A stretch of DNA of 64,000 bases from assembly GCA_902763185.1 (NCBI GenBank), contig CACWQT010000005.1, positions 4,248 through 68,247 on the forward strand. Reading direction: 5' to 3'. Shown one piece after another: positions 1 through 25,282 of this stretch. The DNA is from an uncultured Rhodospirillales bacterium. Lineage in GTDB: Bacteria > Pseudomonadota > Alphaproteobacteria > RF32 > CAG-239. The notes beneath the pieces were generated by a model, which worked only from the letters and a program-made list of their open reading frames with translations, was not told the DNA's origin and did no database searches. The first letter of the stretch is position 1. Every line of letters starts with the position of its first letter. The translations under genes and the position numbers were made by a program.

Positions 1-582
1 CCCGATAATGCATGGCAGCGGATTCGCCATAACAGCCACGCGGTATCTTTCTTAAACGCCTTAAAAGCGCTTGCCGCATGGCGCGAAAATCGCGCCAAAC
101 ATCAGAACGTTTCCCGTCAAAACATCATCAAAGACGATTTGCTGATAAACATTTCCGTCGCTTTCCCAAAAAATATGGAAGAGATGAAACAAGTCCGCGG
201 GATGCGCCCCGATGTGGCAAGAAGCGTCTTGGCAGAAGAAATGCTTGCCGTGTTAAACAGCTTAAACGAAAAGAGTTTTGACCGGACTTTAAGCAAAGTG
301 GATAAAGAAAAAGACGTTTCCCTTGCCGCCGGCCTTCAATCGCTTTATGAGATATTAAAACTACTCTTAAAGATACAATGTAACGAGCACGGTGTTGTGG
401 CGCACCTTGTAACCTCAGAAAAGAATTTGCGCGAATACATTACCAATCCCAAAGCACCCAATCCGATATTAAAAGGCTGGCGTTATGAGATTTTTGGTAA
501 AGCCGCCGAAGAATTCCGCCAAGGAAAACTCGCCTTAACCTACAACCCAACCACTCACGATATTGAGATTAAAAAGCTGTAA
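1..582 (+). CDS. rnd: Ribonuclease D, C-terminal portion (5' end lies outside the window)
   Basis: Frame +1 is open from nt 1 (PDNAWQRIRH...). 'LAAWRENRAKHQNVSRQNIIKDDLL' fits the HRDC-region pattern of RNase D as I recall it. The 139..582 track ORF is only the part after an internal Met. Confidence 0.6.
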   Translation, partial: PDNAWQRIRHNSHAVSFLNALKALAAWRENRAKHQNVSRQNIIKDDLLINISVAFPKNMEEMKQVRGMRPDVARSVLAEEMLAVLNSLNEKSFDRTLSKVDKEKDVSLAAGLQSLYEILKLLLKIQCNEHGVVAHLVTSEKNLREYITNPKAPNPILKGWRYEIFGKAAEEFRQGKLALTYNPTTHDIEIKKL

Positions 583-603
583 AATCATATATTGCAAAAA
601 AAA

Positions 604-632
604 TTGACAACTAAATTTTTATAAAATATCCT
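604..632 (+). promoter_or_regulatory. sigma70-like promoter (TTGACA-N17-TATCCT)
   Basis: TTGACA at 604-609, a 17-nt spacer, then TATCCT at 627-632. It lies just after the rnd stop and upstream of a structured region. Confidence 0.4.
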
Positions 633-639
633 AATCGTG

Positions 640-826
640 CATTAGTTGATAACTGATGTGAGGTTTGAAACCCTCTTACTTACGGTTGCCCCTGAGGCGT
701 AAAACTACCTTTTTGCTTAACGGCAGGAAGGTAGTTAATAAGGCTATAATAAGCTCAATACACTACACTATTCCGTAAGATAGGTTTCAACTTCCTGCCA
801 CCCTTCATCAAGGTGGTATTTTTGTT
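640..826 (+). ncRNA. Candidate structured RNA, either a cis-acting leader of the downstream glycosyltransferase gene or a stand-alone sRNA, ending in an intrinsic terminator
   Basis: Long-range helix cttacgg(679-685)/ccgtaag(773-779), extended by gaaacc/ggtttc. Local hairpin aactacctt(703-711)/aaggtagtt(728-736). Competing pairing ggcaggaag(722-730)/cttcctgcc(791-799), which overlaps the terminator arm. Terminator ccacc(798-802)/ggtgg(812-816) followed by a T-run at 819-823. No convincing ORF. Confidence 0.35.
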
Positions 827-837
827 AATGGGATTTA

Positions 838-3066
838 TTGTATGAAACTTATTTAGGAATACTAATGAGAATTTTAAAAAAAACAAAATTTCAAAAAGGT
901 GATACTCTCGTAAAAAAATACAAATTTTGCGGTTTATCTGTGCTCAGAAAAGAAAAATCGTTAACTAAACAAAAGTATAAATTTTTAGGGATAAAAATTA
1001 GCAAAAAAAATAAATATACTGAAATTGGCAAAAAAAATAAATATACTGAAATTAGCATAGATAAATACTCTGATATATATATAACTGATTTAATTAATTA
1101 TTATTCCACCTTACCTAAAAAATTTATTTCAAATAATGTAAATTCAGCAACAATCATCATTCCGGTATATAATGGATTGGAACATTTATTAAAACTTATA
1201 CCAAGCTTACAGCTTCACACACCCAAAAACGTAAAAATTATTATTATAGATGATTGTAGTCCAGATGAAAAGATACAATCATATCTTAAACAAATTAAAG
1301 AGTATGAAAATATTATCATTTACCGGAATAATAAGAACCTTGGTTTTGTCGGCTCCATCAATGTGGGCATGCAATTAGTTACAACACGTTTTGCCGTGTG
1401 GCTAAATTCCGATACTGTTGTACCGGAATATTGGCTAGAACGTTTATTAGCCCCTTTCAATAAATATGATAAAATAGCAACAACTACTCCATTTACAAAT
1501 TCTGGATGTGGATTTTCTTTTCCAAATTTTGGTGAAAATAATAAATTAATTAAGCCATTAGAATATGTTGATAAAATTTTTCAGAAAATAAATACTTTTG
1601 ATGTAAAACTAAATACAACATACTCAGGTACGGGATTTTGTATGGCCATTGATATGAATTGTTGGAGAGAAATAGGAAAACTAGATGAGAAAAATTTTGG
1701 GAAAGGTTATGGAGAAGAAAATGATTGGTGCTTCCGTGCTCTACAGCGTGGATGGAAACATATGTTGGTTCCAAATTTATTTATTCAACACTGCCATGGT
1801 GGAACATTTCTTTCTGAAGAGAAAGCAAAATTAACACAAGAACACTTAAATATTCTAAAACAAAAATATCCTAATGAAATGAACGAAATTGTACCATGCT
1901 TTTTTAAGCAAGATCCTTGGAAAAAGTATAGAGCATTAGTTAGCATTTTATGTTGTAAAAATAAACCAGTGATAATTATTGATTTAAAAAAACAGACATC
2001 GGATCAATCTGGCGCCATTAGCTATAGTGAAAAAATGATAGAATCATTAATTAAAGACGGATACGACGTAATAGTGCTACAATATGAACGTAGTAGAGAT
2101 AACATTTGGGAACTTGTTCCTATTAGTATTTGTAATACGATGAGGATAAAATTAAAATACTTTAGTGAAATAAACATACTTTTTTCAATGATAAACATAG
2201 AGAAAGTTATAGTTAATAATTTCGCATATTTAATCAATCCACAAAAGGCTATTGATATTCTTTATGAGCTAAAACAAAAATATCCGTTTTCTATTGAATA
2301 TAAATTTCACGATTATTTATCGATTTGTCCTGCATTTTTTTTGATAAATTTCTTAGGGAAAAATTGTTTAAGTTTTGATAGAAGTTCAGAGTGCTCAATT
2401 TGTTTACATAAAAGTACTTTTAAAACAATCGCAGAAGATAATATATTTACATGGCGAAATATGTGGAATAAATTCTTTAGTGTTGTAGATGAATTTAGTT
2501 TTTTCTCAGAATACACCTTAAATAAAGTAAAAAAAGTTTATCCAATTGTTTTAAATAAATATAATATAAGAGAACATCAACCTTTATTTTCAGAAGAATT
2601 TACTAAATATACTCGACCAGCGAAAAACGCGCCTCTCAAAATAGCTTTCGTCGGAGTTTTTTGCTATGAAAAAGGAAGCAAATATTTTATAGAATTACAA
2701 GGAATATTTGAAAAACAAAATATTGCTGCTGAATTTGTTATAATAGGTGTAGATAATCCCCATATAAAACATAAGAATATTCATTTTATTTCCGGATATA
2801 ATAGAGATATATTAGGTAAAATATTAACAGAAAACAATGTGCATTTAGCTATCTATTCATCGATTAATAATGAAACTTTTTCATATGTTGCACAAGAATT
2901 AATGCTGTTAAATGTCCCGTTTGTAACTTTTGACAATGGCGCACATGCTGAAAGAATTAGAAAATATCAATATCCACTTGCAAAAATAGCCGAAAATGTA
3001 TCAGGAAAAGCGTTGTTTGAGGCTACAAGAAGTATATTAAATGAAGTATATTCAATCAAAATATAG
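838..3066 (+). CDS. Bifunctional glycosyltransferase: central GT2 domain plus C-terminal GT1/GT4-like domain. The real start is probably ATG 865.
   Basis: GT2 signature 'ATIIIPVYNGLEHL...KIIIIDDCSPDE...NLGFVGSINVG...WLNSDTVV'. The C-terminal part 'LKIAFVGVFCYEKGSKYF...ETFSYVAQELMLLNVPFVTFDNGAHAE' resembles GT4. The gene is very AT-rich and the track start at 838 is TTG. Confidence 0.8.
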   Translation: MYETYLGILMRILKKTKFQKGDTLVKKYKFCGLSVLRKEKSLTKQKYKFLGIKISKKNKYTEIGKKNKYTEISIDKYSDIYITDLINYYSTLPKKFISNNVNSATIIIPVYNGLEHLLKLIPSLQLHTPKNVKIIIIDDCSPDEKIQSYLKQIKEYENIIIYRNNKNLGFVGSINVGMQLVTTRFAVWLNSDTVVPEYWLERLLAPFNKYDKIATTTPFTNSGCGFSFPNFGENNKLIKPLEYVDKIFQKINTFDVKLNTTYSGTGFCMAIDMNCWREIGKLDEKNFGKGYGEENDWCFRALQRGWKHMLVPNLFIQHCHGGTFLSEEKAKLTQEHLNILKQKYPNEMNEIVPCFFKQDPWKKYRALVSILCCKNKPVIIIDLKKQTSDQSGAISYSEKMIESLIKDGYDVIVLQYERSRDNIWELVPISICNTMRIKLKYFSEINILFSMINIEKVIVNNFAYLINPQKAIDILYELKQKYPFSIEYKFHDYLSICPAFFLINFLGKNCLSFDRSSECSICLHKSTFKTIAEDNIFTWRNMWNKFFSVVDEFSFFSEYTLNKVKKVYPIVLNKYNIREHQPLFSEEFTKYTRPAKNAPLKIAFVGVFCYEKGSKYFIELQGIFEKQNIAAEFVIIGVDNPHIKHKNIHFISGYNRDILGKILTENNVHLAIYSSINNETFSYVAQELMLLNVPFVTFDNGAHAERIRKYQYPLAKIAENVSGKALFEATRSILNEVYSIKI
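1001..1054 (+). repeat. Perfect-to-near-perfect 27-nt tandem duplication inside the GT gene
   Basis: gcaaaaaaaataaatatactgaaatt(g/a) occurs twice back to back (1001-1027 and 1028-1054). It encodes KKNKYTEI(G/S) x2, and each copy carries an A8 tract. Confidence 0.9.
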
Positions 3067-3141
3067 GGATAAAATTTTATATATCAATTTCAACAAAAAA
3101 GAGTTCGCTTTAAGCTCCTTTTCTCCCCCACCTTATTCCTA

Positions 3142-3170
3142 TTGACAAAAGCGCATAAACAGAGTAGTTT
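3142..3170 (+). promoter_or_regulatory. sigma70-like promoter (TTGACA-N17-TAGTTT)
   Basis: TTGACA at 3142-3147, a 17-nt spacer, then TAGTTT at 3165-3170, about 25 nt upstream of the U32 gene start. Confidence 0.35.
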
Positions 3171-3195
3171 TCTTTGAAATCAATCGGAGTAAACT

Positions 3196-5301
3196 ATGAA
3201 ACACGAACTTTTAGCCCCTGCAGGGAATATAGAAGCCGGATACGCCGCCCTCTATTATGGAGCGGACGCTGTCTATTTGGGTTTAACCAAATTTTCGGCG
3301 CGTGCCGGTGCTGAGAATTTTACCGCTGAGGAATTAGACGAGTTCACCGCTTATGCCCATAGCCTAAAGAAAAAAGTTTGTGTTGCTCTAAATACGATTT
3401 TAACCGAAGAAGAAACAAAAGAACTCCCCGAGACTTTTGCCACCTTGAAAAAGGCGAAAGTTGATGCACTGATTATTCAGGATTTAGGCGTTTATTACTT
3501 AGCAAAAAAGTTCGCCCCCGAAATTGAACTACACGCCAGCACACAAATGGCCGTGCATAATGCCGAGGGTGCCAAATTCCTCTATTTGCTGGGGTTCAAA
3601 CGGGTGGTCTTGGCGCGCGAGCTGACGTTAGCCGAGATAAAATTGATTGCCAAAGCTGTACCGGAAGTGGAACTGGAAGTATTTATCCACGGCGCACTAT
3701 GTTATTCTTATAGTGGACAATGCTTGTTTTCAGCCCTTGAATACGGCAAAAGCGCCAATCGTGGCCGCTGTATTTATCCCTGCCGCGCCGAATATGGAAA
3801 ACAAGACCGCCTCAAAGCACACTATTTTTCTATGAAAGATTTAGCCCTTGAAGAACAAGTTTTAGATATTCCGGCTTATTCGTTAAAGATTGAGGGGCGT
3901 AAAAAATCGCCGCTTTATGTTGCCGCCGTAACCAACTATTATCGCCACATCTTAGACGGCAAAAAGAAAGATTTAAACGAGGCAGAAGACATCAAACAGA
4001 TTTTCTCGCGTCCGTGGTGCCGCTTCCATTTCAACGGTAAGGATAAAAACATCACTGATGAAGAGTTTGTCGGACATCGCGGTCTTCTGATAGGTAAGGT
4101 TGAAAAGATAAATAAAAATCGTTTGGGCTTCAAGTCTGCAAAACCTTTAGGGCGTTATGACGGTTTGCAGATAGATGTAAGTGGCTCAGAAAAACCGTTC
4201 GGCTTTGGTATAAAGGCGTTATATGTGAATAACAAATCCGTTTTTGAAGCACCTAAAAATCAATATGTAGAGGTGGAGTTACCCCCCGAGCATCCGCACT
4301 TAACCATTGGCGAACCGATATATTTAGCTTCATCTTCGGCAGTTAAAGGGCGCTATGGCTACCAAAAGCCCAAACCCAAAGAATATCAAAACGCCATCAC
4401 CCATGCCGTGCGCTTAGAAGTAACAGCAGACAAAATTTGGGCATTAAGCGGCAATATTGCAGTAGAAAGTAAGGGAACGTTTACCCCGGCAAAAGATACC
4501 GCCAAAACAACAGTTGCCGCAAAAGAGGCATTTGCTAAAACCGGTGGCACAGGCATTGTGTTTGATAATGTAGAAATTATAAATCCGAACAACTTATTTA
4601 TCCCTGTATCAATTTTAAACGATTTACGGCGCCGCCTGGTAGAGGCTTTGCAAGCAGAAGATACCGCAGAAATCCTGACCTTACCACCGTTAAAACCTTT
4701 ACCGCAAAATACCGATGCACCGAAAAATCTAAATCTGTTTTCTTTAAGCCAACACACCAACGTTGCGGAGTTAAACCAAGAAACAATAAATACGGCATGG
4801 TTTGTTTTACCGCAAATTTGTCGCAATACCAAAGCGTTAAAAGATACTATTGATGAATTGTATCATCAGGGCGCTCGCCAATTCGTTGCCGAAAATTATT
4901 ACGCTTTTGAAATCTTAAAATCCTATAAAGGGCTGAAAATTGCCGCCGGCTCTTTTTTGTATGTGATGAACAGCTACGCAGCACTTGCCTTAAAAGAAAT
5001 CGGCGTCTCATGGGCGACTTTGGCATTAGAGAGTTCGCCGGATAATATGAAAGAAGTAATAAGCCACTCCCCACTCCCTTTAGCGCAGGTTATAAAAAGC
5101 TATCCGCCATTGTTCACTTCTGCTGTTTGCCTGCGTAAAAATGCGTGTCAAGATTGCCCGCGTGGTGAGCTAAAGTGGAATATTAAAAAAGATGGCAAAG
5201 AATACACCGTTGTTTCCAAAGATTGCATGGTCCAGTTATTTGCCAAAACACCATACGAGCGCACCCCCATTACTGGTGTCTGGGGCATAATCAACGAATA
5301 A
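3196..5301 (+). CDS. Peptidase U32 family protein (long form with a C-terminal extension)
   Basis: N-terminus 'ELLAPAGNIEAGYAALYYGADAVYLG...FSAR' and 'EVFIHGALCYSYSGQCLFS...SANRGRCIYPCR...LKIEGRKKSP' are the U32 hallmarks. Confidence 0.85.
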   Translation: MKHELLAPAGNIEAGYAALYYGADAVYLGLTKFSARAGAENFTAEELDEFTAYAHSLKKKVCVALNTILTEEETKELPETFATLKKAKVDALIIQDLGVYYLAKKFAPEIELHASTQMAVHNAEGAKFLYLLGFKRVVLARELTLAEIKLIAKAVPEVELEVFIHGALCYSYSGQCLFSALEYGKSANRGRCIYPCRAEYGKQDRLKAHYFSMKDLALEEQVLDIPAYSLKIEGRKKSPLYVAAVTNYYRHILDGKKKDLNEAEDIKQIFSRPWCRFHFNGKDKNITDEEFVGHRGLLIGKVEKINKNRLGFKSAKPLGRYDGLQIDVSGSEKPFGFGIKALYVNNKSVFEAPKNQYVEVELPPEHPHLTIGEPIYLASSSAVKGRYGYQKPKPKEYQNAITHAVRLEVTADKIWALSGNIAVESKGTFTPAKDTAKTTVAAKEAFAKTGGTGIVFDNVEIINPNNLFIPVSILNDLRRRLVEALQAEDTAEILTLPPLKPLPQNTDAPKNLNLFSLSQHTNVAELNQETINTAWFVLPQICRNTKALKDTIDELYHQGARQFVAENYYAFEILKSYKGLKIAAGSFLYVMNSYAALALKEIGVSWATLALESSPDNMKEVISHSPLPLAQVIKSYPPLFTSAVCLRKNACQDCPRGELKWNIKKDGKEYTVVSKDCMVQLFAKTPYERTPITGVWGIINE

Positions 5302-5302
5302 T

Positions 5303-5338
5303 AAAAAACCGCCATCTTTTTCAAGATAGCGGTTTTCA
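5303..5338. terminator. Bidirectional intrinsic terminator between convergent genes
   Basis: Stem aaccgccatct / agatagcggtt, flanked by an A-run on the 5' side and a T-run on the 3' side. Confidence 0.7.
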
Positions 5339-5355
5339 TCGGGTTTAAAGAAAAA

Positions 5356-6123
5356 TCAAACATCGTAGCGCATTTTGGCGAGTGCATAGGTCTCAGCCTG
5401 TCCGAGTTTGTGATACACATCAGCCAGTTGGATAATCAAGTCATTAATCTCTTTGGAAAGTTCATCCAGTTTGATTTGCGCCTGAGTTCCTTTCGCAAAG
5501 CCGGATTTAGGATCTTCTTTAAGAGCAAGCAACAGAGCGTCAAGAGAGTTAGATTCACTTACTAACGAATTAATACGTTTTTGCAAGTCTGATTTCTCAT
5601 GACAAAGCTCATCTTTCAAGATCTCAATCTTCTGCTGAGTAGTTCCACCGGAGGGCGCGTCTTTCAAGAATTCATCTAAGACTTTTTGGGCCGTCCGATA
5701 TACTTCCTCATCAAGTTCAACACCCCAGTTAACCCAGTTAATAATTTCCTGAACCCCATCTGCTGGCGTGGTGTCAGCGCTAAAATCTGCCGCATAGCCG
5801 AAGCCGTCACTTGCAACAAAGTGTCCTTTTTTAGCCATCAATTCTCGTAGTGTGCACATGGCAAACTCGGTTGCCACGTCATGAACAGACTTAAGCAAAG
5901 AAAATGTCTTGCCTTTGTTTACGTCCACCAAAAGGCACATCAACTGTTTACGTGCGACCTTGGGGAGTTTGTTAAACGCAGAAACATTCCACACCAAAGA
6001 AAGTTTGTTCTTTTGTTGCCGGTCTAGCTCAATCTCTCCATAGATGAAGTTCATCACCTTAAGTTGGTCAAAAACCCCGTTTTCCAACCCGATTTTGAAT
6101 AAAGTTAAATCAAATCCTTCCAT
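5356..6123 (-). CDS. Hypothetical protein, tandem paralog A (255 aa)
   Basis: Long ORF with its own promoter and terminator. It shares clear blocks with the 6318..7100 product: MEGFDLTLFKIGLENGVF / MEQFDLTVLKIGLEKGVF, SLVWNVS.FN.LP, EIINW..WG..LD.EV, FLKDAP, GQAETY.L.K..Y.V. Confidence 0.7.
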   Translation of the reverse strand: MEGFDLTLFKIGLENGVFDQLKVMNFIYGEIELDRQQKNKLSLVWNVSAFNKLPKVARKQLMCLLVDVNKGKTFSLLKSVHDVATEFAMCTLRELMAKKGHFVASDGFGYAADFSADTTPADGVQEIINWVNWGVELDEEVYRTAQKVLDEFLKDAPSGGTTQQKIEILKDELCHEKSDLQKRINSLVSESNSLDALLLALKEDPKSGFAKGTQAQIKLDELSKEINDLIIQLADVYHKLGQAETYALAKMRYDV

Positions 6124-21028: not shown

Positions 21029-21958
21029 TCAGATAACCTCCGTCTTGCCTTTGTTTTTAGCAAACATACGGCAGAAACAGGCCTGTTCCTTCAGCACAAA
21101 GCTGTAATTATAGGAGAGGAAGCCTCTATCCTCACACAGTGTCTTTGTCAACCAAATCAGATCTTTTGAAAAAATCAAGTCAACATTAACATTGTAGGCG
21201 GATAATTGAGCCAATGTATCATTGATGCTGTCTTTTTCTTTAGCAACATCATCAACATTTTCCTTTTCCGGCAAATCCACTCTGAGTTGCGGGGTGGAAA
21301 GCGACTGGCCTAATGCAAACCCTTTATCTACTGTCATCTTCTTTGGCTCATAGGTCAACTTCATACACAGGAATCTCTTACCGACATGAAGCCCCCACAG
21401 CTTGTCTGTGAGCTCCGGATGAAAATCTGGCGAGATTTTAAGCTGTCCGTCAATAAGATATGCCAACGGATAACCGACATCAATCGGCTTTTTCGTGGTA
21501 TAGCGGCTGACTAAGCGGGTATAGCCGTTAGACATTTCCTTCGGCTCAAATCCGATACGTCCTTTTCCCATATACATAACGGTTGCTTTATCACCGTCAT
21601 CCTCCGTTGACCAATAGGCCCCTTTGCGCCAAGGTTCAGCTTTGATGCCATGTGCATTTAAGATATCCACCGTTGCATTAAAATCCCACTGATACATACA
21701 TGCTACATCCAAAGCAGTCGTAGAGGGCATTGTCGCGCGGCTTAAAGTATCACCCAGCTCAATAGCTGAATCCCAATCACCATCTTCTTCATGGACAAGG
21801 CGAAACACCAGTCCGTGAATGGCGATACCCCAAATTTTACTTTTTAGCCTTATATCCACATAAGGGCGAAGCCAAAAGTAACCTTTAAGAGGGTCTCTGT
21901 AAGCGATAAGACACGGCGTATGCACCGGAATTATCCTTCTTGTCTCTTTTGTTTCCAT
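21029..21958 (-). CDS. Hypothetical protein (309 aa) with two similar modules
   Basis: Clean ORF transcribed divergently from the amidoligase operon. The two halves share a pattern (IWGIAIHGLVF...MPSTT...YWSTEDDGDKATVMY versus LWGLHVGKRF...LPEKE...IWLTKTLCEDRGFLSY) that loosely recalls DUF1566/Lcl-like modules. No signal peptide. Confidence 0.55.
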   Translation of the reverse strand: METKETRRIIPVHTPCLIAYRDPLKGYFWLRPYVDIRLKSKIWGIAIHGLVFRLVHEEDGDWDSAIELGDTLSRATMPSTTALDVACMYQWDFNATVDILNAHGIKAEPWRKGAYWSTEDDGDKATVMYMGKGRIGFEPKEMSNGYTRLVSRYTTKKPIDVGYPLAYLIDGQLKISPDFHPELTDKLWGLHVGKRFLCMKLTYEPKKMTVDKGFALGQSLSTPQLRVDLPEKENVDDVAKEKDSINDTLAQLSAYNVNVDLIFSKDLIWLTKTLCEDRGFLSYNYSFVLKEQACFCRMFAKNKGKTEVI

Positions 21959-22052
21959 ATCCGTAGGTTTATAATAATTTGATTTTGTCTAAATAGTAAT
22001 ATAAATATATTTTTTGTCAAGAAAACAATTTATATCTATAAATTTAATCCTC

Positions 22053-22081
22053 TTGACAATTATAAAAAAATAAAATAACAT
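22053..22081 (+). promoter_or_regulatory. sigma70-like promoter (TTGACA-N17-TAACAT) of the sORF-amidoligase operon
   Basis: TTGACA at 22053-22058, a 17-nt A/T spacer, then TAACAT at 22076-22081. Confidence 0.45.
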
Positions 22082-22118
22082 CCCCCTTAGTTTTGTGAAA
22101 ATTTTAGGGAAAGTCTTT

Positions 22119-22238
22119 ATGACAACCGCAATGAGCATATATTTATTTAAGCTCGCTTTAAGACGCAAAGGTCTTAAAGGTGCGTTGTCTGTACTTATTC
22201 TCCCCCTCATTTTGATTGCTCTCCTTATTAGCTGCTAA
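22119..22238 (+). CDS. Candidate small ORF (39 aa, MTTAMSIYLFKLALRRKGLKGALSVLILPLILIALLISC)
   Basis: ATG at 22119 lies about 38 nt after the -10 hexamer, preceded by a weak AGGGA about 9 nt upstream. The peptide has a basic centre, a C-terminal hydrophobic helix and a terminal Cys. The stop TAA at 22236-22238 abuts a bipartite hairpin. This ORF is below the length threshold of the track. Confidence 0.35.
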   Translation: MTTAMSIYLFKLALRRKGLKGALSVLILPLILIALLISC

Positions 22239-22280
22239 CTCTAAGTGCTTTAACCTTGCTTAAAGCCCGAACACTTAGAG
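22239..22280 (+). promoter_or_regulatory. Bipartite hairpin between the sORF and the amidoligase gene (no T-run; possible processing or attenuation element)
   Basis: Outer stem ctctaagtg(22239-22247)/cacttagag(22272-22280) and inner stem gctttaa(22247-22253)/ttaaagc(22260-22266). Confidence 0.5.
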
Positions 22281-22344
22281 AGATTTGCTTGAGGGCTTTA
22301 AGAAATCAACAGAAAACAGCACAAATTTTAATGAGGGAACAACA

Positions 22345-24051
22345 ATGAAAAAATCACAATCATCAGACGAAAGTGCGAGCGTGCCAAGCGTCAATAATGT
22401 CAAATCAGCATTTAATGAATATTTTTCCACTACCGGACACAAAAATTTCAAACAATTTTACTATGATTGGCACATTAACGCCATGATAGAGCCGTTTGCT
22501 GAGTTAACCACCTATTTCACGCGCAAATATCCGGAAAATACCGCCGAACATTTTGATATGTTCGTTAAAGATTATGCGCAAAGCGTTGAAAATTATAATT
22601 TGGATTGCGAACGCTTCTGTTCGGTAAAACAGGGCATTGTTGATAAAGATAAAGAGCTTTCTAAAATTATTGATAAAATAGAAACATTTAGCTTTGAACT
22701 CCGTCAATTTGCTTACAGTTTTGCCTCAACTGAGGATTATAAAAAGGAATTTGGGGCTTGGGTATATAAGCCCAATTACCCTTATGCTCATTTACATGGT
22801 TTGTCTGTTTCTGTTGATATCTTAAATATGCTCTCAAGAAATTTTTATGCTTTGGAAAACAAAAACACTGCGGAAGATACCCGCTATTTAACGGATAACT
22901 ATCTTCGCACGGTTATTGCGCCTGAGTATCGGTATAATAACCAATATACTTATGCCGTGCGCCAAGATATGATAAATGAGATGGTTACAATGCGCAACCA
23001 AATGGCAGAAGAATACCAAGCCGGAAAATACCAAAATAAAATCGATATGTTTCAAGTGGAAACCGGTAAAAAAGCGCATTTCGGCACATATCGTCCCAAT
23101 GGTTTTGAGCTGGAGTTTTATGTGCCGGAAGAATTTGGCGATTATGCCAAGTTAATAGATTACTTAAAGGAAAAACACGGTTGGAAGCGTGTCTATACCA
23201 CAAGCAAAAATCCCGAAGTTTATAAAGATGGAGAAGCCGCTGGCGTGATAGAGCGCGATGAAAGTTTAGCCGCCATGTCAGGGTTGGCACCGGTCGAATA
23301 CGCCTCACGGATTATGAAATCCCAAAAGGACGAACAAGAATGTCTCAAAATTATGGATTCGTTTGACAAAGGTTATGCCAACGTGCATTGTTCGCTTCAT
23401 CAACACGTTTCTGCCGCAGGGTTTGATTTGCCGATTTATAAGCGCTTAGTTAAGCGTATGATGCAACACGAAGCCTATATTGTTGAGAATTTTGCCGCAC
23501 CCGAGCGTCGCGATAATAAACTTCTTTATGCAACCTACATCAGCCGCAATTTAAGCTCGGACGGTGCGCGTGATTACCCCTTTTTATGCGTTATGGTAGA
23601 TATGTGTGAAAACCTAAATGAATTAAGAGATATGGTCGGATTCGGACATAAATACAAAACCTTAAACATCATGCCCGATAAAACGGTTGAGTTTCGCTAT
23701 ATGAACGCCAACTTTAACCATCAATATGTGGCGGCATTCTTGCAGTTTAATCGTGATTTTGTAAATAGTGCCGTCAATAATGAGGGGACACATATCAATC
23801 GCCCTCTTGCCAACCGATTTAATTGGATGCAAAATCTGACAGAGGATGACAAAACGGTTCTGCGTCAGTTAAGTTACTACTATCAAAAGCCTTATGACCA
23901 GTTCCGCCCCGATAATACGGTTGATGCGCATACGATTTATGAAGAAAATGTCTATGCGCGCCATATTGCCGAGGCAATGAGTCATACCAATAAATTCGGT
24001 TACTACAACAGTTGGTTTAATAAGAGGGTAAGAGATGCCAGACGAGCCTAA
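22345..24051 (+). CDS. Amidoligase (glutamine-synthetase-fold COOH-NH2 ligase, Amidoligase_2-like) with an unknown N-terminal region of about 270 aa
   Basis: The C-terminal module has the ordered motifs 'GFELEFYVPEE', 'VIERDESL...PVEYASRI', 'CSLHQHVS', 'APERRDN' and 'KTVEFRYMNANF'. The start at MKKSQS (22345) follows GAGGGA; the track ORF begins at TTG 22285. Confidence 0.65.
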   Translation: MKKSQSSDESASVPSVNNVKSAFNEYFSTTGHKNFKQFYYDWHINAMIEPFAELTTYFTRKYPENTAEHFDMFVKDYAQSVENYNLDCERFCSVKQGIVDKDKELSKIIDKIETFSFELRQFAYSFASTEDYKKEFGAWVYKPNYPYAHLHGLSVSVDILNMLSRNFYALENKNTAEDTRYLTDNYLRTVIAPEYRYNNQYTYAVRQDMINEMVTMRNQMAEEYQAGKYQNKIDMFQVETGKKAHFGTYRPNGFELEFYVPEEFGDYAKLIDYLKEKHGWKRVYTTSKNPEVYKDGEAAGVIERDESLAAMSGLAPVEYASRIMKSQKDEQECLKIMDSFDKGYANVHCSLHQHVSAAGFDLPIYKRLVKRMMQHEAYIVENFAAPERRDNKLLYATYISRNLSSDGARDYPFLCVMVDMCENLNELRDMVGFGHKYKTLNIMPDKTVEFRYMNANFNHQYVAAFLQFNRDFVNSAVNNEGTHINRPLANRFNWMQNLTEDDKTVLRQLSYYYQKPYDQFRPDNTVDAHTIYEENVYARHIAEAMSHTNKFGYYNSWFNKRVRDARRA

Positions 24052-24772
24052 AGTATATGAAGTCTTAAACAAAGAGAGCTTAAATCCGCTGATTTTAACG
24101 TGCGAACACGCTTCGGCCATAATTCCTTCAAGCTATCATAATCTGGGGGTAAAGGAAGATTTGCTTGATACCCATATCGCACGCGATAAGGGGTGTAAAG
24201 AGTTGACCGCAAAATTGTCGGAAAAACTGAATTGCACCGCGTTTATAGCCGGCTATTCCCGACTTTTTATTGACTATAATCGCCGCGAAAACGAGGATAG
24301 TCTTATTTTAAGCGAAAGCGATAAAGTTCTTATTCCGGGTAATCTTAATCTGACCGATAAAGAACGCCAATTCCGCATAGAAAACTATCATCGCCCGTAT
24401 TATACCGCGATTTTACAAAAGATTAAAGCACTTCAGCAACAGGGCATCACCCCAAAGATTTTTTCTATTCACGGTTTTACGCCACAGCTTAGGGGCGGTA
24501 ATTATCGCCCATGGCACGCAGGTGTTTTGTATGTCAAAGAAAATCCTTTGGCATTAGAGCTACTTAACGGCTTAAAGCGCTATTCGGAGTTAAAAACCGA
24601 TGCCAATGTGCCTTATGATTTGCGCCAATACAATACCGGTGCATCGGCAATCTGCGGCGAAGATATTGGGCTTCAAAACGCTGTCATAGAAATCCGCGAT
24701 ACCGAGTTTGATGACATTTCTCGCGGTGCCGATAAATGGACGAATATCTTAGCGGATATCTTGGAAAAATAA
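24035..24772 (+). CDS. N-formylglutamate amidohydrolase (FGase/HutG-like) family hydrolase
   Basis: 'LILTCEHASAIIPSSY', 'DTHIARDKG', 'YSRLFIDYNR', 'ENYHRPYY' and 'IFSIHGFTPQLRG' follow the FGase family order. It overlaps the amidoligase 3' end by 17 nt. Confidence 0.7.
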   Translation: MPDEPKVYEVLNKESLNPLILTCEHASAIIPSSYHNLGVKEDLLDTHIARDKGCKELTAKLSEKLNCTAFIAGYSRLFIDYNRRENEDSLILSESDKVLIPGNLNLTDKERQFRIENYHRPYYTAILQKIKALQQQGITPKIFSIHGFTPQLRGGNYRPWHAGVLYVKENPLALELLNGLKRYSELKTDANVPYDLRQYNTGASAICGEDIGLQNAVIEIRDTEFDDISRGADKWTNILADILEK

Positions 24773-24829
24773 TCCCTTTACAAGCCCACAAAATTGTGGT
24801 ATTCTATAAGTGTTAAAAATCATACGATT

Positions 24830-25282
24830 ATGAAAAAGATATTATTAATGGCTATATTAGCCATTGGTCTCGCAGTTCAAGGCTACGCGCAGAGACCACA
24901 CCACCACCATCATCACCACCCAATGCCCAGTTGGTATATTTGGAATGCAGTTGCAGGGTATTATTACTATTCAGCACTCAACTGCTACTGGTGGGGACCT
25001 TCATGGAGTGAGCCCAATAAGGTAAGGGTAGATTGCATAGAGTTCAAAAGAACATCTAGAGGGCGTCTCCGTATCAAAAATGGGAACCTCGAAAAAGAGT
25101 ATTACTCTATGTGGGAGGAAAACTCGTGGAGATTCCGTTGCCCTAATGGGGTGATTGCAGATGTCTCGACCGGAAACGGTCAAACCAAAATCAAGGTACG
25201 CAGTCAGGATGGCAAATTAACTTCAAGTTATACACTGACCGCAAGAAGAATACCATACACATACTATGGTTACTACTACTAA
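24830..25282 (+). CDS. Secreted His7- and Tyr/Trp-rich small protein (150 aa)
   Basis: Signal peptide MKKILLMAILAIGLAVQGYA, then QRPHHHHHHHPMPSWYIWN...GYYYYSALNCYWWGPSW, ending ...YTYYGYYY. Followed by a strong terminator. Confidence 0.65.
   Translation: MKKILLMAILAIGLAVQGYAQRPHHHHHHHPMPSWYIWNAVAGYYYYSALNCYWWGPSWSEPNKVRVDCIEFKRTSRGRLRIKNGNLEKEYYSMWEENSWRFRCPNGVIADVSTGNGQTKIKVRSQDGKLTSSYTLTARRIPYTYYGYYY

Follow-up and report, generated by a model that had tools for sequence, protein, structure and literature searches.

We describe a two-gene cassette in a stretch of DNA from an uncultured Rhodospirillales bacterium (contig CACWQT010000005.1, positions 4,248 to 68,247 of the forward strand; this whole stretch of 64,000 nucleotides is called the window below). 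The first gene encodes a two-domain amidoligase (here, the ligase), the second encodes a protein of the N-formylglutamate amidohydrolase family (here, FGase), and both are preceded by a structured leader that contains a small open reading frame (sORF). We consider it fairly probable that this is a self-contained cassette in which the leader gates the ligase, that it is native to gut and rumen Alphaproteobacteria, and that it serves a small-molecule amide chemistry of the glutamyl type.

The first-pass annotation of this DNA had listed a promoter, a 39-codon sORF, open reading frames (ORFs) of 568 and 245 amino acids and a 17-nucleotide overlap between the latter two; all of these are present in the sequence, and so are all the protein motifs that it quoted from the translations. 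The sigma-70-type promoter (TTGACA-N17-TAACAT; 22053–22081, plus strand) matches 10 of the 12 consensus positions, and TTGACA was found at the same place in most of the aligned homologous loci. The sORF extends over 22119–22238 of the plus strand, with 39 codons from its ATG (MTTAMSIYLFKLALRRKGLKGALSVLILPLILIALLISC*), and reads as 47 amino acids if counted from GTG 22095. The ligase gene follows at 22345–24051 (plus strand) and codes for 568 amino acids from ATG 22345, or for 588 if the ORF is read from TTG 22285. The ATG is the supported start, because GAGGG sits 7 nucleotides 5′ of it and a 99%-identical database protein (P0001) is also 568 amino acids long. TTG 22285 was rejected as a start, since it falls inside the RNA helices P1 and P2 (see below) and the homologues begin at the ATG. 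The FGase gene occupies 24035–24772 of the plus strand, encodes a predicted zinc amidohydrolase of 245 amino acids, and overlaps the end of the ligase ORF by 17 nucleotides.

The search for related loci revealed that FGase adjoins the ligase gene in 44 of 46. As for the two loci without an adjacent FGase, one is cut by the end of a contig, and in the other (L040) the ligase is a second copy, belonging to a metagenome-assembled genome (MAG) that also carries the full pair (L033). At least 38 of the 44 linked loci have the FGase ATG within the ligase gene, 11–20 nucleotides from its 3′ end. The pairing and the overlap, from which the annotation had argued for translational coupling, are thus conserved. 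The genes flanking the cassette differ entirely from locus to locus, and in one divergent subgroup (L116) FGase is located upstream of the ligase gene with the pair still linked. All 40 genome loci belong to MAGs of uncultured Alphaproteobacteria from gut or rumen, CAG:495 and 'Acetobacter sp. 46_36' among them, a clade that we take to be the GTDB order RF32.

The ligase family is small. We found 113 homologues of the large protein in a collection of 5.8 billion proteins, nearly all of them 555–590 amino acids long and with identities down to 42%, and when 1.84 billion cluster representatives were searched exhaustively with a profile, just 83 matched. The base composition of the cassette is that of the surrounding genome; an origin as a horizontal island was rejected because the G+C content is unremarkable. 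Searches with PADLOC and PHROGs gave no matches, so that nothing suggests a defence or phage origin. Judged by these comparisons, the cassette is a native, strictly linked two-gene unit.

The assignment of the large protein to the amidoligases was borne out by its match to Amidoligase_2 (PF12224) over residues 288–472, with 36.3 bits against a cut-off of 22 (E 7.2e-9). In the AlphaFold2 model, which was built on 33 homologues (pLDDT 89.8, pTM 0.90), an all-helical N-domain (residues ~14–236) packs on an alpha/beta domain (residues ~250–510), and the latter is the Amidoligase_2 catalytic domain, with the fold of glutamine synthetase (GS) and glutamate-cysteine ligase (GCL). The sole convincing Foldseek matches in the PDB were YbdK/GCS2 proteins (1tt4 and 1r8g; probability 0.98–1.0), followed by GS and GCL. 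These are the best fold matches of the ligase, yet they belong to a different Pfam family, and the low TM-scores against them are due to its extra N-domain. Among predicted viral structures, Foldseek matched phage 'amidoligase' proteins, down to E 3e-7. No PDB chain matched the whole ligase at the sequence level. The N-terminal region, described earlier as uncharacterised, is real and all-helical; it had no Pfam or NCBIfam match, and Foldseek matched it to PDB folds only at a probability of about 0.1 or less.

A comparison with 12 standalone Amidoligase_2 proteins gave 14 invariant residues in the ligase (G253, E255, E257, D305, S307, E318, N346, H352, H354, Y437, N441, E449, F450, and R451), and the same 14 were also invariant within 33 family members. 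The family-invariant residues that bind metal, ATP and the carboxylate are all kept. The catalytic positions, whose loss the annotation had named as speaking against its proposal, are conserved, with no family-invariant residue lost. Since every residue invariant in the standalone proteins is retained, the protein should be an active carboxylate–amine ligase of the GS/GCL fold.

For the 245-residue protein, the FGase assignment was confirmed by PF05013 (95.3 bits against a cut-off of 28.9; E 8e-27). Residues invariant among 18 sequences include C23, H25, D80, N82, R83, H146, and E219. The nearest solved structure by sequence is that of Atu2144 from Agrobacterium tumefaciens (2ODF; E 1e-25), which was deposited as a hypothetical protein and in which the CEHAS, SRLxxDxNR, HxFTP, and IEIR motifs align with those of FGase.

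The leader RNA contains two helices that are supported by covariation. Helix P1 (22239–22280, plus strand) pairs CUCUAAGUG at 22239–22247 with CACUUAGAG at 22272–22280, and helix P2 (22259–22302, plus strand) pairs CUUAAAGCCC at 22259–22268 with GGGCUUUAAG at 22293–22302. In P1, 99.7% of the alignment cells were paired (39 sequences) and 5 of 9 pairs showed two-sided changes; in P2, 89% of the cells were paired (all sequences) and two-sided changes were found in 9 of 11 pairs. None of 500 shuffles reached these values, which were also far above all slid controls. Within the group of ~50% identity alone, 99.4% of the cells were paired in P1 and 97.5% in P2, where 6 of 9 pairs had changed on both sides. 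The strands follow the order a, b, a′, b′, which implies an H-type pseudoknot or alternative folds. What had been described as a 'bipartite hairpin' is thus a real structure, though two interleaved covarying helices are the better description of it. Loop sequences vary, and so do the loop lengths (L1, 6–21 nucleotides; L2, always 3; L3, 6–17), which would permit an H-type pseudoknot; nearly all invariant bases are in stems.

A third helix, P0, connects the end of the sORF with the ligase start. When the leader of the window is folded to minimum free energy, its 5′ strand (CCCUCAUU..GAU; 22204–22216, plus strand), a predicted anti-Shine–Dalgarno sequence in the last sORF codons, pairs with its 3′ strand (AUU..AAUGAGGG; 22325–22337, plus strand), which holds the ligase Shine–Dalgarno sequence GAGGG at 22333–22337 (z = −2.3). 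In L028, P0 has 17 base pairs and z = −3.4. Equivalent helices of 11–25 base pairs were predicted in most homologues by RNAduplex and by folding, with compensating differences, and on alignment A3 two-sided changes were found in 5 of 13 pairs. P0 and P2 were tested with hand-specified structures. RNAalifold recovered P1 only, because P2 is interleaved with P1 and the 3′ region of P0 aligns poorly.

The sequence pattern of P1 and P2 occurs once in the window, against 0.00 occurrences expected. The Rfam search gave no match to the leader up to E 10, and at gathering scores the whole window was likewise without a match. When metagenomes were scanned with a leader-derived 17-mer, 59 stretches came back, of which two had the full motif, both of them 5′ of a ligase gene; the other 57 had neither the P1 arm nor a match to ligase or FGase and are probably chance matches. 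Two variations on this architecture were seen. In L003 (5818–6000), on the most divergent branch, a clear intrinsic terminator (AAGAAGCGG...CCGCUUCUUUUUUU) comes after the sORF in place of P1 and P2, and it seems that the leader ORF works there through another RNA mechanism. In several loci of the ~50%-identity group in alignment A2, such as L001, L035, and L041, the P2 3′ strand (CACAC) can pair with a GUGUG downstream of P2, which is followed by a conserved GUUUAAUUU; this was noted by eye, and the pairing could form a third alternative hairpin.

An sORF of ~35–45 codons was found in every locus, from ~220 to 100 nucleotides upstream of the ligase start. All 40 loci had an in-frame ORF of at least 33 codons from an ATG, against a chance expectation of 1.7% per locus, and a purine-rich run resembling a Shine–Dalgarno sequence lies ahead of this ATG. 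The N-terminal half of the sORF changes equally at all three codon positions (26% of single-base differences are synonymous), which indicates that its reading frame is kept open while its sequence is not preserved. In the C-terminal half, codon position 2 is under constraint. Most of the products end in a hydrophobic stretch of ~18–20 residues, the length of a transmembrane helix. Leu and Ile abound in the tails of many loci, and Phe, Tyr and Ser in those of L001, L041, and L117; the L116 peptide is not hydrophobic and has a polar tail, and P0 and P1 are still there.

The sORF ends within the 5′ strand of P1 in most loci, where the stop codon is part of CUC-UAA-G or CUC-UGA-G. The sORFs of the window and of L009 end two codons early, yet they retain a second stop at the conserved position (in frame at 22242–22244 in the window). 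The C-terminal residue varies across loci (Leu, Cys, Ser, Arg, or Trp), and the sORF C-termini showed no Pup-like Gly-Gly-Glu/Gln end, no conserved acidic or Gln terminus, and no conservation of residues beyond what the RNA imposes. The leader is directly 5′ of the ligase gene also where FGase has moved upstream (L116), is absent (L117), or has been replaced in the second copy (L040), and in the loci examined the sORF peptide was never seen apart from the ligase. The sORF is most likely a regulatory leader and not a substrate.

These features suggest a mechanism in which the sigma-70 promoter would transcribe a leader whose sORF of 35–45 codons is translated. The last ~5–8 codons of the sORF would provide the P0 5′ strand and the Shine–Dalgarno/AUG region of the ligase gene the P0 3′ strand, and the ligase gene would be off by default because P0 pairs that region. 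P1, with the sORF stop in its 5′ strand, and the interleaved P2 would form a compact pseudoknot-like fold closed by P0. Ribosomes arriving at the sORF end, pausing there or terminating there would melt P0 and P1 and expose the ribosome-binding site of the ligase gene. Ligase synthesis would then be gated by translation of the leader or by stalling on it, much as in erm and cat translational attenuation, and FGase would be translated next through its overlap coupling to the ligase gene.

Attenuators of the erm, cat, and cmlA type have a short translated leader ORF and a downstream Shine–Dalgarno sequence that is paired to leader sequence. The present leader resembles those of ermC, cat, and cmlA in its upstream short ORF and in the predicted pairing of the downstream ribosome-binding site with leader-ORF sequence. 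It differs from them in that the final codons of the leader ORF hold the anti-Shine–Dalgarno sequence and a helix holds the stop codon, in that two interleaved covarying helices lie between the P0 strands, and in that the genes regulated here are not known resistance genes.

Other readings of the leader were weighed against translational gating. In a more specific form of it, the leader would be a ribosome-sensing switch of a new kind: the nascent peptide, with its ...(L/I)I(S)L-stop end, would be made as the ribosome opens the pseudoknot in which its stop codon lies, would arrest or slow termination in response to a small molecule and so unmask the ligase site, and the cassette would serve an inducible detoxification or salvage of an amine or carboxylate by reversible glutamyl-type amidation; the inducer could be the substrate of the enzymes or a ribosome-targeting gut compound. 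We regard this as unlikely. The same can be said of a riboswitch in which the P1/P2 pseudoknot is an aptamer, a metabolite stabilises P0, and the sORF is incidental or modulating. A pseudoknot closed by a helix that occludes the Shine–Dalgarno sequence is a typical architecture of OFF riboswitches, and both the strong covariation of P1 and P2 and the constant 3 nucleotides of L2 agree with it. Yet no Rfam family was matched, L1 and L3 are variable and the invariant bases are nearly all in stems, unlike known aptamers, and such variable loops argue against a ligand-binding aptamer. The ORF is moreover kept in 40 of 40 loci with its stop in P1 and the purine run before its ATG, and L003 retains the sORF without P1 and P2.

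We think it very unlikely that the sORF encodes a type I toxin or a small membrane protein that serves the ligase as an anchor or partner, with the RNA fold controlling the peptide. The hydrophobic tail of most products and the conserved codon position 2 in the C-terminal half would fit such a role, as would the envelope and lipid genes near relatives (the ICMT-like gene in L040, the LPG_synthase_C fusion in L051, and psd/pssA/kdsA in L049). However, hydrophobicity is not universal (L116), the U-rich codons are also demanded by pairing with the purine-rich Shine–Dalgarno region, and the peptide was not found away from the ligase in the loci examined, with the RNA motif solely 5′ of the ligase gene. 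A classical transcription attenuator, in which a Leu/Ile-rich peptide senses charged tRNA and controls a terminator, is highly improbable in our judgement. It could draw on the Leu/Ile-rich tails of many loci, on the L003 terminator between sORF and ligase gene, and on the several ~50%-identity sequences in which, by eye, the P2 3′ strand can pair with GUGUG ahead of a U-rich tract; but the window has no terminator-like site between the sORF and the ligase gene (22238–22345), the tails are not amino-acid-specific (Phe/Tyr/Ser in L001, L041, and L117, polar in L116), and the helix found consistently is the one over the Shine–Dalgarno sequence. A branched-chain amino-acid attenuator was rejected, as tail composition is not amino-acid-specific across loci.

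As to the enzymes, the ligase would use ATP to form an acyl-phosphate that is captured by an amine, and its helical N-domain is probably the part that binds the acceptor. FGase would act as a carboxypeptidase-like zinc amidohydrolase on an amide of the N-acyl-amino-acid type; it would either cleave the amide made by the ligase, limiting or recycling it, or supply a substrate of the ligase. The Peptidase_C26, Aig2, and FGase partners of such ligases all act on glutamyl amides (C26 is of the gamma-glutamyl hydrolase type and Aig2 of the gamma-glutamyl cyclotransferase type, and the substrate of FGase is an N-acyl-glutamate), and by this analogy the product is most likely a small glutamyl-type amide or peptide metabolite that is made and broken, or remodelled in two steps, and not a protein tag. 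That ligase and FGase act on one and the same bond, as the writer and eraser of the annotation, is something we infer.

Distant relatives of the ligase share part of the N-domain together with the catalytic domain. In three contexts, a Peptidase_C26/GATase gene directly follows such two-domain relatives, in the position of FGase; two of these contexts also hold a RimK-type ATP-grasp protein, a radical SAM protein, and an aminotransferase, and the third is a bare two-gene pair. One distant relative sits after a gene of the Asp/Glu racemase family, and one stands without a hydrolase. A 39%-identical FGase adjoins a ligase gene of GCS2 (YbdK) type: in L047 (3721–5979) and L048 (1469–3727), a DUF4404–FGase–GCS2 triad was seen with TldD/PmbA genes nearby, and this is an independent pairing of FGase with a GS-fold ligase. 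The C26 gene in the FGase position and the FGase beside GCS2 give independent support to the proposed coupling of ligase and hydrolase, and argue that it is real. They also indicate that the pairing of a GS-fold ligase with an amide hydrolase recurs and that both partners are exchangeable.

Some of these neighbourhoods are of interest in their own right. L055 (1619–8552) is a putative biosynthetic cluster with, in order, a PrnB-like protein (PF08933), an aminotransferase, a radical SAM protein (SPASM), a RimK-type ATP-grasp protein, the two-domain amidoligase, and Peptidase_C26. L053 and L054 (1616–9045) have the L055 order, but their first gene encodes a 422-residue protein without a PF08933 match, and a GNAT acetyltransferase follows Peptidase_C26. 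In L051 (8001–15097), a 953-residue protein fuses LPG_synthase_C (aminoacyl-tRNA transferase type) to the two-domain amidoligase and is followed by an alanine racemase, a beta-lactamase-fold protein, and a second amidoligase paralogue of 594 residues, a context that suggests D-alanine or cell-envelope chemistry.

The ligase family was first defined by Iyer, Burroughs and Aravind in 2008, by computation only (PMC2588565). In the neighbourhoods described there, the partner was a GAT-like thiol peptidase or an Aig2 gamma-glutamyl cyclotransferase, small conserved ORFs were noted as absent, and the prediction was synthesis of glutathione-like peptide metabolites and not protein conjugation (PMC2588565); a phage example of such a gene set has been published as well (PMC10945688). 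The cassette resembles those operons in its GS/GCL-fold catalytic domain, with all family-invariant residues kept, and in the gene for an amide-cleaving enzyme directly after the ligase gene. Unlike them, it has as partner an FGase-family zinc hydrolase unrelated to either published one, an extra helical N-domain of ~240 amino acids on the ligase for which no homologue is known, and a conserved small ORF and structured leader before the ligase gene; its family occurs only in a single clade of Alphaproteobacteria from gut and rumen. The published partner type (Peptidase_C26/GATase) was found only with the distant two-domain relatives, the neighbour within the clade being FGase.

Full-text literature searches found no pairing of an amidoligase with FGase; a 2009 amidoligase survey lay outside the search, and an earlier mention is possible. 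The papers found reported no experimentally shown function for Amidoligase_2. In the PuuA/PuuD pathway of putrescine catabolism, a GS-fold ligase makes a glutamyl amide and a C26-type hydrolase later removes the glutamate. Unlike PuuA/PuuD, the pair of this clade has no oxidising or other modifying enzymes linked to it, and its hydrolase is of a different family.

The annotation had also considered what the pair might act on. It is unlikely, in our view, that the ligase writes and FGase erases an amide or isopeptide mark on the sORF product (as a tag, a scaffold, or a precursor like those of ribosomally synthesized and post-translationally modified peptides) or on a neighbouring secreted protein. 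A small ORF is strictly conserved beside the ligase gene, where the 2008 family description noted none (PMC2588565), GS-fold PafA/Dop and ATP-grasp RimK are precedents for peptide ligation, and some distant relatives are in biosynthetic-looking clusters with RimK, radical SAM, and aminotransferase genes. The evidence on the peptide itself runs the other way: its N-terminal half evolves neutrally, its C-terminal residue is unconserved and lacks the Pup-like Gly-Gly-Glu/Gln end, and hydrophobicity is missing from the L116 peptide. Pairing in P0 and P1 accounts for the conserved 3′ codons and the Leu-stop, and a hydrophobic peptide anchored by its tail would have its C-terminus outside the cytoplasm. 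Neither the sORF peptide nor the neighbouring secreted protein is supported as the target; the 162- and 309-residue proteins encoded beside the cassette in the window are absent from all other loci (0 of 46). Practically negligible is the chance that FGase is an ordinary HutG of histidine catabolism placed fortuitously beside the ligase. Public records do name it 'N-formylglutamate amidohydrolase', but with the HutG equivalog model TIGR02017 it scored 25.1 bits, far below the cut-off of 278.75, and its linkage to the ligase is kept across 43–100% identity and through the inversion of gene order. The histidine-utilisation (hut) context that the annotation had named as speaking against its proposal is absent, with no hut genes in any neighbourhood examined. 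A HutG identity is thus refuted as far as sequence and gene context can do so.

Several points weigh against the leader-gated, glutamyl-type cassette that we favour. P0 is weaker than P1 and P2, with 81% of cells paired (alignment A3) and a mean duplex z of only −1.7, and it is weak or absent in a few sequences, for example L017, L022, L037, and L038. The covariation in P1 and P2 largely separates two clades, which means fewer independent events than the cell counts suggest. The intrinsic terminator of L003, in the place of P1 and P2, means that the RNA mechanism is not uniform. On the side of the enzymes, making and cleaving one bond with this pair would run as a futile cycle if nothing kept the two activities apart in time, space, or substrate, and the racemase, FemX-like, and beta-lactamase-fold neighbours of other distant relatives point to D-amino-acid or envelope chemistry more than to simple gamma-glutamyl chemistry.

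Around the cassette in the window, a 162-residue ORF (24794–25282, plus strand) has a signal-peptide-like N-terminus, a run of seven His (RPHHHHHHHP), and a Tyr/Trp-rich body, and had no Pfam, NCBIfam, PADLOC, or PHROGs match. A 309-residue ORF (21029–21958, minus strand) is divergently transcribed from the intergenic region on the sORF side, with a promoter-like site at 22020–21993 of the minus strand, and had no match in four family libraries. Elsewhere, one relative (L005/L006) has a Cas9-Cas1-Cas2 locus directly upstream of the cassette (338–5641), with a CRISPR array of ~15 units and a 66-nucleotide period at 4652–5641. In L040 (3980–7146), the leader and amidoligase copy are followed, instead of by FGase, by a 435-residue polytopic membrane protein with an ICMT/PEMT-type methyltransferase domain. 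In L117, where the amidoligase has no adjacent FGase, a gene of the AstE/AspA deacylase family (1–181, minus strand) lies ~2.8 kb upstream on the opposite strand. N-succinylglutamate desuccinylase and aspartoacylase are among the members of this family; the two genes may be close by coincidence.

The cassette belongs to a kind of operon, Amidoligase_2 with an amide hydrolase, that has been known since 2008. What is new here is the FGase partner, the helical N-domain, the restriction to one clade, and a leader without an Rfam family. By comparative analysis, the leader is a putative new cis-regulatory element backed by covariation; its elements are an sORF that is predicted to be translated, a stop codon placed within a helix, a second helix interleaved with that one, and a further helix that masks the Shine–Dalgarno sequence. 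The leader could reveal the inducing signal and, through that signal, the substrate. The exchange of FGase and C26 hydrolases, together with the distant FGase beside GCS2, means that the identity of the partner can guide guesses at the substrate. The cassette offers a compact way into Amidoligase_2, since it has two enzymes, a defined leader and numerous natural variants. It is the mark of an entire clade of uncultured Alphaproteobacteria from gut and rumen, where it may make or remove a small amide metabolite.

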